In this document: positions 2,867-51,295 of the stretch, piece by piece
How the letters are laid out: every line of letters starts with the position of its first letter
Numbering within the stretch: the first letter of the stretch is position 1
Origin: Escherichia coli
GTDB taxonomy: Bacteria; Pseudomonadota; Gammaproteobacteria; Enterobacterales; Enterobacteriaceae
Assembly: GCF_003334385.1 (NCBI RefSeq)
Contig: NZ_QOWN01000025.1
Reading direction: 5' to 3' (one strand)
Length of the DNA stretch: 64,000 nt
Position numbers and translations under genes: made by a program
Notes under the pieces: generated by a model
What the model saw: the letters and a program-made list of their open reading frames with translations, nothing else
Told to the model about the DNA's origin: nothing
Databases searched by the model: none

Positions 2867-3241
<375 letters not shown>

Positions 3242-3603
3242 TTATGAGAATAAATACTCATTTAAGGGTGAAAACATTTTGCCTGCAAATGATTATCAGG
3301 AAATATAACATTATCGAAGTATTCAAATTAACAACTATTAAATAATATTAAACATTTTTAACGTAAACATTAAGAATATTCATCTTGTTATCTGTCTGTA
3401 TTTTAACCAGAATTAAATCAGTATTAGATGCCGTATGAATATCTCGAAATGTTGCTGTGTATCACATACAAATCATCACCGCAGGACCATAGTATTTACA
3501 TAAGATTTGTCCCCCGGAGGTAGTCATCGCAGCAATCGAGTAAATTAGCTTCACCACGGTATATTGTTTCCGTAGAATACCCATAATTATAAGAGAGGTT
3601 GTT

Positions 3604-3663
3604 ATGATTGAACGTGAACTGGGGAACTGGAAAGACTTTATCGAAGTTATGCTTCGTAAGTAA
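3604..3663 (+). CDS. ypfM: small protein YpfM (19 aa)
   Basis: atg...taa encoding MIERELGNWKDFIEVMLRK between yffB and acrD; matches the known K-12 small protein. Confidence 0.75.
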   Translation: MIERELGNWKDFIEVMLRK

Positions 3664-3723
3664 TTCCTGAGACAAAGTACAAACAGCAAGAACCCGCTGA
3701 GCAGGTTCTTAATCGGAAAGTTG

Positions 3724-3756
3724 AAAAAGGCGACACATTGGCATGTCGCCTTTTTT
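3724..3756. terminator. bidirectional rho-independent terminator (ypfM / acrD)
   Basis: aaaaaggcgacacattggcatgtcgcctttttt: GC stem flanked by A and T tracts, directly after the acrD stop. Confidence 0.75.
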
Positions 3757-3761
3757 ATTGC

Positions 3762-6700
3762 TTATTCCGGGCGCGGCTTCAGCGGGAAGCGGCGGCGCAC
3801 CAGCACAAAGAACAGCGGCACGAAGTAAATAGCCAGAATAGTGGCCGAAATCATCCCGCCCATTACGCCAGTACCCACCGCATGCTGACCACCGGAACCG
3901 GCACCCGTGCTGGTTGCCATTGGCAATACGCCGAAGATAAATGCCAGCGAGGTCATCAGAATCGGGCGTAAACGCTGACGGCAGGCGTGGAGCGTCGCTT
4001 CAAACAGGTCGTGGCCTTTTTGGTTCATCTCGTTAGCAAACTCGACGATCAGGATGGCGTTTTTCGCCGATAAACCAATGACCGTTAACAGGCCCACCTG
4101 GAAGTAAACGTCGTTTTCCAGCCCGCGCATCCAGGTTGCCAGCAGCGCGCCGATTACCCCCAGCGGCACGACCAGCATTACCGAGAACGGCACCGACCAG
4201 CTTTCATACAACGCAGCCAGACACAGGAATACCACCAGCAAGGAAATGGCGTACAGCGCCGGAGCCTGCGCGCCGGAAAGCCGCTCCTGATACGACATCG
4301 CCGTCCACTCCAGACCAAAGCCGTTTGGCAGCTGCTTCACTAACGATTCCATAATATCCATCGCCGTACCGGTACTGACCCCCGGTGCGGCTTCCCCAAC
4401 AATCTCAACCGCAGAATAACCGTTATAGCGTTCCAGACGCGGCGAGCCTGTTTCCCAGCGTGAGGTCGCGAAAGCAGAGAAGGGCACCATGCCGCCATCT
4501 TTATTTCGGACATACCAGAGATTGATGTCATCTGGCAGCATGCGATACGGCGCAGCTGCCTGCACATAGACTTTCTTCACGCGACCGCGATCCATAAAGT
4601 CATTCACATAGCTCGAACCCCAGGCGGTTTGCAGTGTGTCGTTAATATCGTCGATAGCAACGCCCAGCGCCTGAGCTTTACGCTGGTCGATATCAATCTG
4701 CAACTGCGGACTGTCGTCGAGGCCGTTATGGCGCACACGGGTTAGCTCCGGGTTTTCCGCCGCCAGCGCCAGCAACTGATTACGTGCTGCCATCAGCGCA
4801 TCGTGACCCGCTCCAGCGTGGTCCTGCAACTCCATATCAAAACCTGCAGAACTACCAAGACCGCTAATTGCTGGCGGGCTGCTGGCGATAACGCGAGCTT
4901 CTTTAATTTGGTTAAACGCCTTCGTTGCACGCTCGATAATGGCAAACGAGGTGCCGGTCTTACTGTCGCGTTCGCTCCAGTCTTTCAGGCGGATAAACAT
5001 TCGCGCCACGTTTTGCCCGTTACCCCCAGGGCCAGAACCAACGGTGGCAAACACCGACATGATGTTGTCTTTTTCATGGGTGAAGTAGTATTTCTCGATT
5101 TGCTCAACGACTTTCAGGGTCTGTTGTTGCGTTGAACCGCTGGGCAACTGTACCGAGGTAGTAAACATGCCACGGTCTTCCAGCGGTAAGAACGACGTCG
5201 GCAAACGCAGGAACAGGAACACCATGCCGCCAAGCAGCAGGACATAAATCACAATCCAGCGCAGGCTACGGTGGAGAATTTTCGCCACCCCTTTTTCGTA
5301 GCGTTCGGCGTTGCGGTTAAACATCTGGTTAAACCAGGCAAAAAAGCCTTTTTGCCCATGATGCTCACCTTTTTTCAGTGGCTTAAGTAGTGTGGCACAC
5401 AGAGCCGGAGTGAGGATCATCGCTACCAGTACTGACAGCACCATCGCCGCAACAATGGTAATAGAGAACTGGCGATAGATGGCACCGGTGGTGCCGCCGA
5501 AGAAGGCCATTGGTACAAATACCGCCGAAAGAACCATCGCAATCCCGACCAGTGCCCCCTGGATCTGCCCCATCGATTTACGTGTGGCTTCGCGAGGAGT
5601 GAGTCCTTCCTCACTCATAATACGTTCGACGTTTTCCACCACCACGATGGCGTCATCCACCAGCAGACCGATCGCCAGCACCATCGCGAACATGGTTAAG
5701 GTGTTGACGCTGTAACCGAAGGCGTAAAGTACGGAGAAGGTTCCCATCAACACCACCGGCACGGCGATAGTGGGTATCAGCGTGGCGCGGAAGTTTTGCA
5801 GGAACAGATACATAACGAGGAAAACCAGAGCGATAGCTTCCAGCAGCGTTTTCACCACGTCTTCAATGGAGGCTTTAACAAACGAGGTGGTTTCATACGC
5901 CACCTTGTATTCCAGTCCATGCGGGAAATACTGCGCCAGCTCGTCGAGACGATTGAGCACCAGCTCCGCTGTCGCCATTTCGTTAGCGCCGGAGGCCAGT
6001 TTTACCCCCAGCCCGGAGGCTGGCTTACCATTGAAGCGGCTAAGATAATCGTATTTCTCCGCCCCCATTTCGACGGTGGCGACATCGCCCAGCCTTACCT
6101 CTGAGCCGTCCTGATTGACCCGCAAGGTGATATCGCGGAACTGTTCTGGTGTTTGCAGCAGTGACTGGGCGTTAATGGTGGCGTTGAGCGCCTGCTTATC
6201 GACGGAAGGTGTACCACCAAGTTGCCCAACCGCAATCTGCGCGTTCTGTGACTCAATGGCATCAGTGACATCTTTAGCCGTCATCTGGAAACTGTTGAGT
6301 TTCGCCGGGTCCAGCCAGATACGCATGGAATATTGCGAACCATAGGCATCGATATCCCCGACGCCATTCACGCGGCTTAACGGGTCCTGAATATTACTGG
6401 CAACATAATCAGCAATATCCTGTTTATCCATCGAACCATCGGTAGAGACGAAGGCAATGGTCAGAATGTTGGTATCGCCGGTTTTACGCACCGTCACGCC
6501 CTGATTTTGCACCGCCTGCGGTAACTTTCGCATGGCTGATTGCAGCTGGTTTTGTACTTGCTGCACGGCTTCGTCCGGATCGGTGCCTGCTTTAAAACTT
6601 AAAGTGACAGATGCCTGACCGGTGCCACTGCTCTGAGATGACATATACATGAGATTATCGAGGCCGGTCATATTTTGCTCGATAACCTGGGTCACGGTGT

Positions 6701-49009: not shown

Positions 49010-49048
49010 GGATTAATAGCATCGGAGACTGATGACAAACGCAAAACT

Positions 49049-49150
<102 letters not shown>

Positions 49151-49197
49151 ACAAAGCGCACTTTTTTAACAGTTGTTGCTGCCGACAAATGCAGTAT

Positions 49198-49932
49198 TTA
49201 ATTTTCGTGAGGAAACGCCGTAAGGTCATCAATCATTTTTTGAAGTATTGGTGAGTCCTGACCGTCACCCCATTGAAGAATTTTTGCGGTAAGCTGATGA
49301 CGCGCTAGTGCATTGAGTCCCATCTTTTTAAGTTTATGGGAGATTTTACCCATGACTTTAATCTGACCGAATGCAGTTGCGTAGGTAATCATATTGCTCT
49401 GGATAGTGCTCATTTCATCGACTAGTAATTGCGCACGAACATCCTCTTCAAGAATACTGTCCATAGCGATGTATTTCATACCCCACATAGTTTCAATTAA
49501 CATTTGAGGGAAATCAGCACAGTCCAGATCCGGCTCTTTACGGAGGCTATTTTCAAGAACGTTTAGAGCATCAGCACCTTCATCGCTGCCAAAAGGAGAT
49601 TCTTCATCCCAGCAACACATATAAAGTGGATCAGTAAAATGGCACTGGAAGTTTGGGTGTGACGTTTTAACATGTAACCCAATTTCTTCATCATCAAAAT
49701 AGTAGCGATCCATGAAGTTAAACTTTGGATCTTCTTGATAGCCTTTCTTCATTTTTGCGGCAATCAATTTACTGGCTTCTTTCAGACACTGTTCTTCATT
49801 ATCGAACTCTTTTGTCTGGAATTTACCAATACTACCTACCTTGCCATAGTTGACAGCTAAACTATCCCCTTCGTAATCTATCCACCAAAATTTATTCGAT
49901 TTTTCATCGTGATAAATAAAGCGTTTTTTCAT
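49198..49932 (-). CDS. yfeS: WGR-domain protein YfeS
   Basis: 244 aa; N-terminal WGR-like motif (FWWIDYEG...NYGKVGSIG); AT-rich. Confidence 0.85.
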   Translation of the reverse strand: MKKRFIYHDEKSNKFWWIDYEGDSLAVNYGKVGSIGKFQTKEFDNEEQCLKEASKLIAAKMKKGYQEDPKFNFMDRYYFDDEEIGLHVKTSHPNFQCHFTDPLYMCCWDEESPFGSDEGADALNVLENSLRKEPDLDCADFPQMLIETMWGMKYIAMDSILEEDVRAQLLVDEMSTIQSNMITYATAFGQIKVMGKISHKLKKMGLNALARHQLTAKILQWGDGQDSPILQKMIDDLTAFPHEN

Positions 49933-49964
49933 GTTACCTCCTGTAAATGCCTTCCCAAAGCGGA

Positions 49965-50339
49965 TTAATTTCCTTCCGCAGGCACCGTTTTATCCGTCTG
50001 CGCAATTAACGCATGTAAAAAAGGCTGTGCGTTCTCATCGCTCTTACCGGGGATCTTCACAATATACGGCTTCCCAGTAATCGATGACGACGAAGCAACC
50101 TTATCAATAAACTGCTCGGCAGTGTCAATGCGGTTACGGGTATTGCCGAGCTTCAGACGCAGATGAGAAACCGCTTCATAGCAGGTATGTTCATCACCGT
50201 TGCGCACAAATATCAAATCCTTTTTCTGTGCTAATCCCTCCAGCATGGCGTTGATGCGGGCTTCTTCATGGGCAGTTAACTTCGCGTAAACGGGGAGTGT
50301 CATTAGTAGTGTAATGACCAGACAAATGATTTTCTTCAT
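49965..50339 (-). CDS. yfeK: secreted protein YfeK
   Basis: 124 aa with signal peptide [19 protein letters not shown]. Confidence 0.85.
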
Positions 50340-50364: not shown

Positions 50365-50407
<43 letters not shown>

Positions 50408-50443: not shown

Positions 50444-51295
50444 ATGAGTAGTTTGTTGTTGTTTAACGATAAGAGTAGGGCACTGCAGGCGGATATCGTC
50501 GCCGTGCAGTCGCAGGTGGTTTACGGCAGCGTGGGCAACAGCATTGCCGTGCCTGCTATCAAACAGAACGGCCTGAATGTCTTTGCCGTGCCGACGGTAT
50601 TGCTGAGCAATACGCCGCATTATGACACTTTCTACGGTGGTGCGATTCCGGACGAATGGTTTAGCGGCTATTTGCGTGCGCTTCAGGAGCGTGATGCGCT
50701 GCGCCAACTTCGTGCTGTAACCACGGGCTATATGGGAACGGCATCGCAAATCAAAATCCTTGCCGAGTGGCTGACTGCGCTACGCAAAGACCATCCTGAC
50801 CTATTGATCATGGTCGATCCGGTGATTGGCGATATTGATAGCGGAATTTATGTCAAACCTGACCTTCCCGAAGCGTATCGACAATATTTACTGCCGCTGG
50901 CGCAGGGAATTACCCCCAATATCTTTGAGTTGGAAATCCTGACCGGTAAAAATTGCCGCGATCTCGACAGTGCCATTGCTGCCGCAAAAAGTCTGCTTTC
51001 AGACACATTAAAATGGGTGGTGGTTACCAGCGCCTCCGGTAATGAAGAAAATCAGGAGATGCAGGTTGTGGTGGTCACTGCCGACAGCGTGAATGTCATT
51101 TCCCATTCACGGGTAAAAACCGACCTGAAAGGGACTGGCGACCTGTTTTGTGCTCAGCTCATCAGTGGCTTGCTGAAAGGGAAGGCGTTAACCGATGCAG
51201 TGCACCGAGCGGGGTTGCGCGTACTGGAAGTGATGCGCTACACCCAGCAGCATGAGAGCGATGAATTGATTTTGCCGCCGCTGGCGGAAGCATAA
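50444..51295 (+). CDS. pdxK: pyridoxal/pyridoxine/pyridoxamine kinase
   Basis: 283 aa; ribokinase-like fold. Confidence 0.93.

Follow-up and report, generated by a model that had tools for sequence, protein, structure and literature searches.

The interval between cysM and pdxK of Escherichia coli raises the question whether two small co-oriented genes lying in an AT-rich stretch, yfeS and yfeK, arrived there together as one foreign unit or have different histories. We analysed a window of 64,000 nucleotides (contig NZ_QOWN01000025.1 of assembly GCF_003334385.1), in which the list of open reading frames (ORFs) gives the order cysW, cysA and cysM on the plus strand, yfeS and yfeK on the minus strand, pdxK on the plus strand, and crr, ptsI and ptsH on the minus strand. 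This is the cysPUWAM / yfeS / yfeK / pdxK / crr-ptsI region of E. coli K-12, with 100% identity to K-12-type strains in a megablast search of 5426 complete E. coli genomes. The genes are labelled in RefSeq as "yfeS: WGR domain-containing protein" and "yfeK: YfeK family protein"; both are already annotated K-12 genes of unknown function, and the locus itself is already known. A preliminary description had taken positions 49198-50339 for an AT-rich islet of two horizontally acquired genes, probably silenced by H-NS. On balance, we consider it probable that a native yfeK and a foreign, accessory yfeS share one transcription unit, that they do not form a two-gene island, and that the cassette with yfeS has been exchanged laterally; more tentatively, YfeS may be a binder-like protein.

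The AT-richness that had been noticed by eye was borne out by windowed GC content. The stretch 49198-50339 has a GC content of 41.9% against 52.9% window-wide, which corresponds to the 0.3rd percentile of 1142-bp windows, and the gene calls with their coordinates (Table 1) are correct. The low-GC anomaly is almost wholly due to yfeS, with a GC content of 39.2% (0.5th percentile) and a GC content at third codon positions (GC3) of 36.7%. The composition of yfeK is ordinary: its GC content of 46.4% (10th percentile; GC3 51.2%) is similar to that of crr (47.3%) and ptsI (49.7%). In a ranking by an index similar to the codon adaptation index (CAI), scored against the window's own ORFs (57 ranked), yfeK is fourth lowest and yfeS eighth lowest. 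Both genes fall in the lower tail and neither is extreme; of the two, yfeS alone deviates in GC3 (0.37, with a median of 0.59).

YfeK possesses a DUF5329 domain (Pfam, E 5.6e-31) and matches NF007646 with 276.7 bits against a cut-off of 171. Judged by sequence, its N-terminus reads as a Sec signal peptide of residues 1-19, followed by K, in agreement with the small signal-peptide protein of the preliminary description. Homologs of yfeK with 70-85% identity were found in Klebsiella, Salmonella, Enterobacter, Citrobacter-like bacteria, Superficieibacter, Pseudocitrobacter and other genera, and the gene lies between pdxK and cysM in all loci that were read (Klebsiella, Salmonella and Pseudocitrobacter). 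It is also retained in the E. coli strains without yfeS. yfeK is a vertically inherited gene of the Enterobacteriaceae, encoding a small periplasmic DUF5329 protein. In strain 317, yfeK is frameshifted (L002, 1613-1982).

The gene yfeS is distributed differently. Among the 5426 complete E. coli genomes, taken from RefSeq, a query consisting of yfeS only was found in 1387, and 1383 of these retain at least 80% of the gene length (a length criterion, with reading frames not checked for each genome). The complete 1.6-kb query with yfeS was found in 1375 genomes, and the query for the empty junction in 4038, so that yfeS is absent from 74%. Since the occupied and empty counts sum to essentially all 5426 genomes, the locus is biallelic. 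Every carrier possesses yfeS as a single chromosomal copy, except for one plasmid-labelled record. In K-12 MG1655, the gene occupies 2,541,775-2,542,509 of NZ_CP025268.1, and yfeS falls into two allele classes (>=99% and ~97%). In the empty sites, which were read directly with the RefSeq annotation, the stop codons of cysM and yfeK are 2 bp apart. The occupied locus measures 4601 bp and the empty one 3642 bp; the difference of 959 bp is accounted for by a pair of repetitive extragenic palindromic (REP) elements, a short spacer holding a MarA site, and yfeS with its Shine-Dalgarno sequence; 6 bases by which yfeK is longer at its 3' end make up the remainder. YfeK ends in ...VPAEGN where yfeS is present; in empty-site genomes its tail, ...VPAQ, is two residues shorter and abuts the cysM stop codon.

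Decayed alleles of yfeS were also found. An IS1 element splits the gene in strain LR-03 (H1/H13), and an E. coli metagenomic contig (L092, 5001-5651) carries an in-frame deletion of 28 residues between DDEE and WDEE repeats, which takes out the invariant TSHP motif of the protein. Truncated fragments of yfeS are present in Shigella. Of two "89%-identical" YfeS clusters (P0002 and P0003), P0003 was rejected as a divergent lineage, as it corresponds to an ordinary E. coli allele with the 28-residue in-frame deletion. A plasmid-borne yfeS was rejected as well: the 70%-identical record NZ_CP098226.1 (L091; PLSDB pZ0117EC0005-3, 50 kb) carries ptsI, crr, pdxK, yfeK, yfeS, cysM and cysA, all broken by frameshifts. 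Because these genes are an error-ridden copy of the chromosomal ptsI-cysA region, the record was treated as a misassembled chromosomal fragment.

The gap between yfeK and cysM is a variable cargo slot, which is filled differently across enterobacteria. An unclassified Pseudocitrobacter (L084) has the order yfeK (124 aa), yfeS, REP and cysM, and in P. faecalis (L086) the slot is empty, with a junction as in the empty sites of E. coli. Klebsiella (L088) harbours a SnoaL gene between yfeK and cysM, and Salmonella (L090) a different ORF of 116 aa; no yfeS was detected in the loci of these two genera that were examined. A metagenomic contig of 1.1 kb (L093) holds the 3' end of yfeK, a yfeS whose protein is 65% identical to that of E. 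coli, and the 3' end of cysM. The region of its ribosome-binding site (RBS; GTTACGGGAG..AACATG) is recognisably homologous to that of E. coli, and its yfeS is AT-rich (GC 38.5%, GC3 36%).

Other differences among these loci concern the surroundings of yfeK. The SnoaL/DUF4440 gene of Klebsiella is located downstream of yfeK (L088, 4398-4793), and its homolog in Pseudocitrobacter (L084, L086) is located upstream of it. Pseudocitrobacter also possesses a gene with CSS-motif and EAL domains between crr and pdxK; the rearranged genes around yfeK lie at 814-2361 and 3481-3888 in L084 and L086. In Klebsiella and Salmonella, GntR-aminotransferase and GATase genes are present between pdxK and yfeK. In the Salmonella record (L090, with the slot ORF at 4376-4726), the C-terminal part of YfeK appears frameshifted.

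Two Pseudocitrobacter-like loci (L004, L084) were compared with E. coli K-12 for synonymous divergence (dS, Nei-Gojobori method). The dS is 0.12-0.19 for yfeS, 0.45-0.55 for cysM, 0.59-0.63 for crr and 1.1-1.3 for yfeK. Between L004 and L084, dS is 0.09 for yfeS and 0.39-0.42 for the flanks, and in every inter-genus comparison the value of yfeS is 3-8 times below that of its flanks. As the yfeS cassette is far younger than its surroundings in each of these comparisons, lateral exchange between genera is required. The yfeS of L093 is, for its part, saturated at synonymous sites. The ratio of nonsynonymous to synonymous divergence (dN/dS) is 0.13-0.33 in yfeS against 0.01-0.08 in the flanks, which shows that yfeS is under relaxed, still purifying selection.

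When 100,044 species were scanned, each represented by one genome, 174 stretches proved to encode a relative of YfeS. Among the matches listed, the only enterobacterial ones belong to one metagenome-assembled genome of Pseudocitrobacter and to a cryptic Escherichia sp., on a contig of 585 bp with 89% identity at the nucleotide level. The other listed matches, with at most 58% identity, belong to Paenibacillus, Bacteroides, Dysgonomonas, Bacillus, Clostridia, Flavobacterium, Neisseria (~46%), Fusobacterium and others. The best non-enteric homologs (55-58% identity) are found in Paenibacillus, Sporosarcina and Bacteroides, that is, in Firmicutes and Bacteroidota. By pairwise identities, the three enterobacterial copies of YfeS share ~64% of their amino acids with each other and 56-58% with the best outsiders. 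This fits a single old entry of the YfeS family into the slot, which would have come from an AT-rich donor pool. After such an entry, yfeS would persist as a presence/absence polymorphism, and its alleles would be passed from one lineage to another, for which homologous recombination in the conserved flanks, cysM and yfeK, is the probable route.

That yfeS and yfeK were acquired together as one AT-rich islet silenced by H-NS is highly improbable. The low GC of the combined stretch, which is the lowest of all 1142-bp windows in the 64 kb, speaks for a joint islet, as do the co-orientation of the two genes 32 bp apart, their co-regulation and the below-median CAI-like index of both. Nonetheless, yfeK occurs without yfeS in 4038 E. 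coli genomes, occupies this position also in Klebsiella, Salmonella and P. faecalis and has an ordinary GC3 (0.51), and the inter-genus dS values of the two genes indicate different histories. The rise of yfeS mRNA together with rpoE (PMC2685091) also argues against full silencing. Only yfeS is foreign; yfeK is present without it and across the Enterobacteriaceae, the kind of conservation that the preliminary description had itself named as speaking against an islet. Horizontal acquisition as such holds for yfeS, in view of its composition, its presence in ~25% of genomes, its distant homologs and its low dS, and does not hold for yfeK with its ordinary composition and conserved position. The same applies to the phyletic distribution, which is patchy for yfeS; yfeK is conserved in Klebsiella, Salmonella, Pseudocitrobacter and Enterobacter.

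A different history would make yfeS an old, vertically inherited resident of the slot, the empty allele a derived deletion that spread, and the AT-richness an intrinsic and maintained property. We regard this as possible, although short of probable. It agrees with L093, in which a third enterobacterial lineage has in the same slot an equally AT-rich yfeS with 65% identity, saturated dS and a homologous RBS, with the allele of the cryptic Escherichia sp., and with the existence of decay alleles (the IS1 insertion and the 28-aa in-frame deletion). The AEGN tail of YfeK also matches the tails of 124-aa YfeK proteins of the Klebsiella type, the empty type being 2 aa shorter. However, the dS of yfeS, 3-8 times under that of the flanks, requires that the cassette moved laterally at some point, E. 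coli and P. faecalis share an identical empty junction, the cassette lies between the copies of an 8-bp direct repeat, and yfeS was not found in the examined Salmonella and Klebsiella loci or in other enterobacterial representatives among the matches listed.

The reading of yfeS as a foreign gene in a laterally exchanged cassette has several observations to contend with. The 8-bp repeat GGATTAAT resembles an insertion scar. Simple models of insertion and deletion were rejected: a deletion between the GGATTAAT repeats does not yield the empty allele, and an insertion with target duplication into the empty sequence fails to reproduce the occupied allele. In Klebsiella, YfeK has the tails AESQ and VENQ, to which the long tail AEGN is similar; this favours an occupied, or at least non-empty, slot as the ancestral state. 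The occupied and the empty allele are both present in two genera. No integrase, insertion sequence (IS)/transposase or tRNA gene was seen among the flanking genes cysM, yfeK and pdxK (no scan for tRNA genes was made), and neither a plasmid nor a phage carrying yfeS was found. Moreover, the frequency of ~25% derives from RefSeq complete genomes, in which laboratory derivatives of K-12 are over-represented. With AT-rich accessory islets, which are xenogeneic and typically bound by H-NS, yfeS shares the low GC and GC3, the variability among strains and foreign nearest relatives. It differs from them as a single gene with no integrase, IS elements or tRNA seen, which probably forms the distal cistron of a native stress operon.

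Upstream of yfeK, a promoter of the sigma-E type, GAAACTT-N16-TCAAA (consensus GGAACTT-N16-TCAAA), was detected. It is the sole match in the 64 kb, with 0.01 expected by chance, and the motif is identical in empty-site strains. The yfeK of the window is the gene known from the sigma-E regulon (DUF5329, PRK10318), and its only allelic feature is the tail, longer by two residues, that is linked to yfeS. yfeK-yfeS has been described as a sigma-E operon (PMC11502571), and the mRNAs of both genes rise together with rpoE after loss of a restriction-modification system (PMC2685091). In the same study, overexpression of yfeK affected the cells, and overexpression of yfeS had no effect on optical density or viability (PMC2685091). 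No promoter-like site was found ahead of yfeS, which starts 32 bp behind yfeK in the same orientation with a consensus AGGAGG; this sequence is conserved in the Pseudocitrobacter loci and reads GGGAG in L093. The 32-bp spacer, the lack of a promoter-like site before yfeS and the co-induction suggest a single transcript, from which yfeS would be translated as the second cistron under control of sigma-E. If so, YfeS would be a cytoplasmic accessory protein made under envelope stress.

What YfeS may do has to be read from its two parts. The WGR domain named in the preliminary description was confirmed (PF05406, E 1.2e-17, residues 9-71). AlphaFold2 with an alignment of 31 sequences gave a model of high confidence (predicted local distance difference test, pLDDT, 95; predicted template modelling score, pTM, 0.92), in which a four-stranded sheet and a helix with the WGR fold (residues 1-72) are packed on a helical domain (residues ~93-239). 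The Trp-Gly-Arg triad is not kept: it is Y-G-K in YfeS (N28-Y29-G30-K31) and most homologs, and W-G-K in a few. The C-terminal domain (C-domain) has a net charge of -15 (family mean -14) and the WGR part of +2 (family mean 0.3). Besides WGR, no Pfam domain was detected in YfeS, and neither a PARP catalytic domain nor another effector domain was found. YfeS does not look like a DNA-break sensor of the PARP type or a classical enzyme.

Among homologs at 31-65% identity, the invariant residues of YfeS are T90-S91-H92-P93, P113-F114-G115-x-D117-x-G119-x-D121 and A187..Q190-x-K192..G195, and 50 members of the C-domain family that are more distant have kept H, G, D, G and D almost without change. 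No Pfam model covers the C-domain in YfeS, in 18 multi-domain relatives or in the 50 distant relatives, and no Imm or SUKH match was obtained from Pfam for YfeS or for the latter. NCBIfam has no model of the C-domain, and PHROG matches are confined to the WGR part. The C-domain has no match in the Protein Data Bank (PDB) and no PARP-like structural match, and PADLOC returned 0 families for YfeS at E <= 1. DUF4259, considered because its motif is similar to PFG[SN]DxGxD, was dropped, as hmmscan gave no match at E <= 10. With a profile of the C-domain, at least 754 clusters (50% identity) were found in a collection of 1.84 billion representatives. The domain occurs in stand-alone proteins of ~170 aa, in WGR fusions of ~240 aa, with two or three WGR copies, and in fusions with DUF4240, TPR and DUF4253. 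The C-domain of YfeS is a conserved, widespread and uncatalogued family.

Some members of this family are found under other names or in unannotated records. Stand-alone proteins with the C-domain, retrieved as matches in AFDB50, carry the UniProt names "MolR family transcriptional regulator" or "molybdate metabolism regulator". Apart from the separate WGR module, no similarity of the C-domain to MolR was found, which suggests that the name is a propagated misannotation. A weak stand-alone homolog of the C-domain (31% over residues 78-240) was found in the records of Listeria phages LM 4-11-1 and LM 4-14-1 (H58-H61, 5.9-7.7 kb, unannotated). Other bacterial proteins with an N-terminal WGR domain, namely B. 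fragilis Q64V53 (PDB 2ra8, a WGR of the STM4015 type with a repeat domain), E. coli MolR (WGR and DUF4132) and the LIC_11051 family, have C-domains that are unrelated to that of YfeS.

The genes near YfeS homologs were surveyed for 47 non-redundant loci. The commonest Pfam families among 150 immediate neighbours are SMI1_KNR4/SUKH-1 (5), SUKH_6 (4), SUKH_5 (3) and Imm51 (3); these counts of 3-5 per family may overlap and represent a small minority of the 150 neighbours. Islands picked by hand in Bacteroides, Paenibacillus, Flavobacterium and Bacillus also hold Imm10, Imm11, Imm43 and ankyrin genes. SUKH/SMI1-KNR4 and Imm are families of immunity proteins of polymorphic toxin systems (Zhang et al. 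2011 and 2012; PMC3113570, PMC3482391), and a term count did not find WGR in either of these papers. The association of YfeS homologs with genes of the immunity type is real and confined to a minority of loci. The DUF4253 and DUF4240 proteins, which are fused to the C-domain elsewhere, are encoded directly downstream of the homolog in P. eucommiae (L005) and Neisseria (L041). In Neisseria sicca (L041, 5569-10251), genes for the YfeS homolog and a DUF4240 protein lie between gatC and gatA along with two further small ORFs, which is another case of the YfeS family as cargo within a housekeeping gene pair.

Acidity, the lack of an effector domain, variability among strains, relaxed purifying selection and genomic company lead us to propose, tentatively, that YfeS may be a stand-alone binding or neutralising protein, comparable to the orphan immunity proteins of polymorphic-toxin systems. 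Similar to orphan immunity and polyimmunity genes, yfeS is patchy and polymorphic for presence and absence, and its product is small, acidic, stand-alone and predicted to be cytoplasmic. In contrast to them, YfeS falls outside the Imm and SUKH families of Pfam, has no adjacent cognate toxin and possesses strongly conserved motifs. Several points count against a role in immunity, which would be guilt by association only. No toxin gene adjoins yfeS in E. coli, and YfeS has no PADLOC or Imm-family match. At most homolog loci the neighbours are housekeeping genes, and all-against-all clustering of 776 neighbouring ORFs found no neighbour conserved across genera, only within genera. Besides, the C-domain keeps polar residues (T, S, H, D, D, Q and K) invariant over a wide phyletic range, a pattern that suits a catalytic or ligand site better than an immunity interface, which typically evolves fast. 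A further-reaching version, which we consider doubtful, takes the C-domain as a new family with WGR, DUF4240 and DUF4253 as partners that would act as a conflict or immunity module; the orphan copy of K-12 would be wired to sigma-E and turned on under attack on the envelope, for instance by contact-dependent toxins, colicins or phage.

YfeS could also be a sensor of nucleic acids or ADP-ribose polymers, in which WGR would, as in PARP1-3, read the ends of DNA or RNA, with the C-domain transmitting or executing the response, for example to DNA damage or envelope stress. This is unlikely. YfeS lacks the ADP-ribosyltransferase, zinc-finger and helical regulatory domains that accompany the WGR domain (PF05406) of PARP1, PARP2 and PARP3, as well as any other effector domain, and its WGR part is near neutral with a Y-G-K triad, not basic as in the PARP type. 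A WGR charge of about 0 across the family, together with -14 in the C-domain, makes the protein look poorly suited to binding nucleic acids, and the hint in this direction given by the preliminary description has lost weight accordingly. The induction after restriction-modification loss follows the rpoE/sigma-E regulon and not SOS specifically, and yfeS overexpression was without a phenotype (PMC2685091). The invariance of T90, S91, H92, P93, D117, G119, D121, Q190 and K192 at 31-65% identity would also suit a small enzyme or a metal- or ligand-binding module, using Ser/Thr-His and Asp in stress chemistry such as boric-acid tolerance. A Keio delta-yfeS mutant was indeed reported as sensitive to boric acid, with a minimal inhibitory concentration of 45-50 mM against 100 mM in the wild type and only partial complementation (PMC11502571). 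Even so, we rate this explanation as quite improbable. Just as improbable is that yfeS of E. coli is an effectively neutral passenger under loss, without a current function. Its absence from 74% of genomes with no known consequence, the decay alleles (IS1 in LR-03, the deletion in L092, the Shigella fragments) and the harmless overexpression point that way. However, the dN/dS of 0.13-0.33 indicates purifying selection, 1383 of 1387 yfeS-positive genomes retain at least 80% of the gene length, the cassette was exchanged between genera and retained, and a knockout phenotype has been reported (PMC11502571).

The features of the locus are collected in Table 1. The REP cluster and the divergent pdxK, which the preliminary description had placed at the two borders, were both found, the latter with an intergenic region of 104 bp between yfeK and pdxK. 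On the cysM side, inverted REP arms lie at 49064-49154, and the segment occurs at a median of ~39 places per E. coli genome. The REP-derived Rfam family ES036 (ES036/CssrF) matches 49070-49112 with 40.9 bits against a gathering score of 37.6. An Rfam match of naRNA4 on the REP pair, with 40.5 bits, is under the gathering score of that family. The matches to small RNA families in Rfam, which span 49070-49152, most likely reflect REP homology and not a separate small RNA gene. Between yfeS and cysM, gcaacaactgttaaa was reported as a MarA site by chromatin immunoprecipitation (ChIP) in enterotoxigenic E. coli (ETEC) H10407 (PMC5684230). It sits within the yfeS cassette, and its terminal AAA is changed to GGC in the Pseudocitrobacter loci.

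Table 1. Features of the yfeS-yfeK locus, with positions in the 64,000-nucleotide window
Feature	Position	Strand	Basis or remark
cysM stop codon	49007..49009	+	left edge of the variable slot
Segment present in yfeS-positive genomes only (REP/BIME (bacterial interspersed mosaic element), MarA box, yfeS and its RBS)	49010..49964	.	alignment of occupied and empty sites
8-bp direct repeat GGATTAAT flanking the cassette	49010-49017 and 49962-49969		site alignment
REP pair (BIME), two inverted REP elements in the cysM-yfeS gap	49040..49156	.	inverted repeats, Rfam, copy number
MarA site gcaacaactgttaaa, between the yfeS stop codon and the REP pair	49165..49179	-	PMC5684230 and sequence
yfeS coding sequence (CDS), 244 aa	49198..49932	-	predicted cytoplasmic; WGR at residues 1-72, acidic all-alpha domain at residues ~73-244
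yfeS Shine-Dalgarno sequence AGGAGG	49937..49942	-	inside the 32-bp yfeK-yfeS spacer
yfeK CDS, 124 aa	49965..50339	-	DUF5329/PRK10318, signal peptide at residues 1-19; native core gene
Sigma-E type promoter GAAACTT-N16-TCAAA upstream of yfeK	50373..50400	-	corresponds to the published yfeKp
pdxK, divergent	50444..51295	+	native neighbour on the right

Elsewhere in the window, the sole other stretch as AT-rich as yfeS lies at 3030-3760, where the GC content of 735-bp windows falls to 36.7%. This stretch spans the 3' part of a gene for a 118-aa ArsC/YffB-like protein and a spacer of 538 bp to a large gene encoding an acrD-like RND pump.

yfeS is still on lists of unannotated K-12 proteins (PMC12356324). 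What the present analysis adds is a population and comparative picture of the locus, and the recognition of the YfeS C-domain as an uncatalogued family found together with genes of the immunity type. The foreign unit is corrected to one gene, and the locus becomes a probable native sigma-E operon with a variable distal slot. The gene yfeS is tractable: as a naturally polymorphic cassette that genera have exchanged, it is present in some natural strains and absent from others. The company of the C-domain (SUKH/Imm, DUF4240 and DUF4253) yields a concrete and testable hypothesis. If the immunity-like reading of YfeS were true, envelope-stress signalling would be linked to the expression of a cytoplasmic protective factor.

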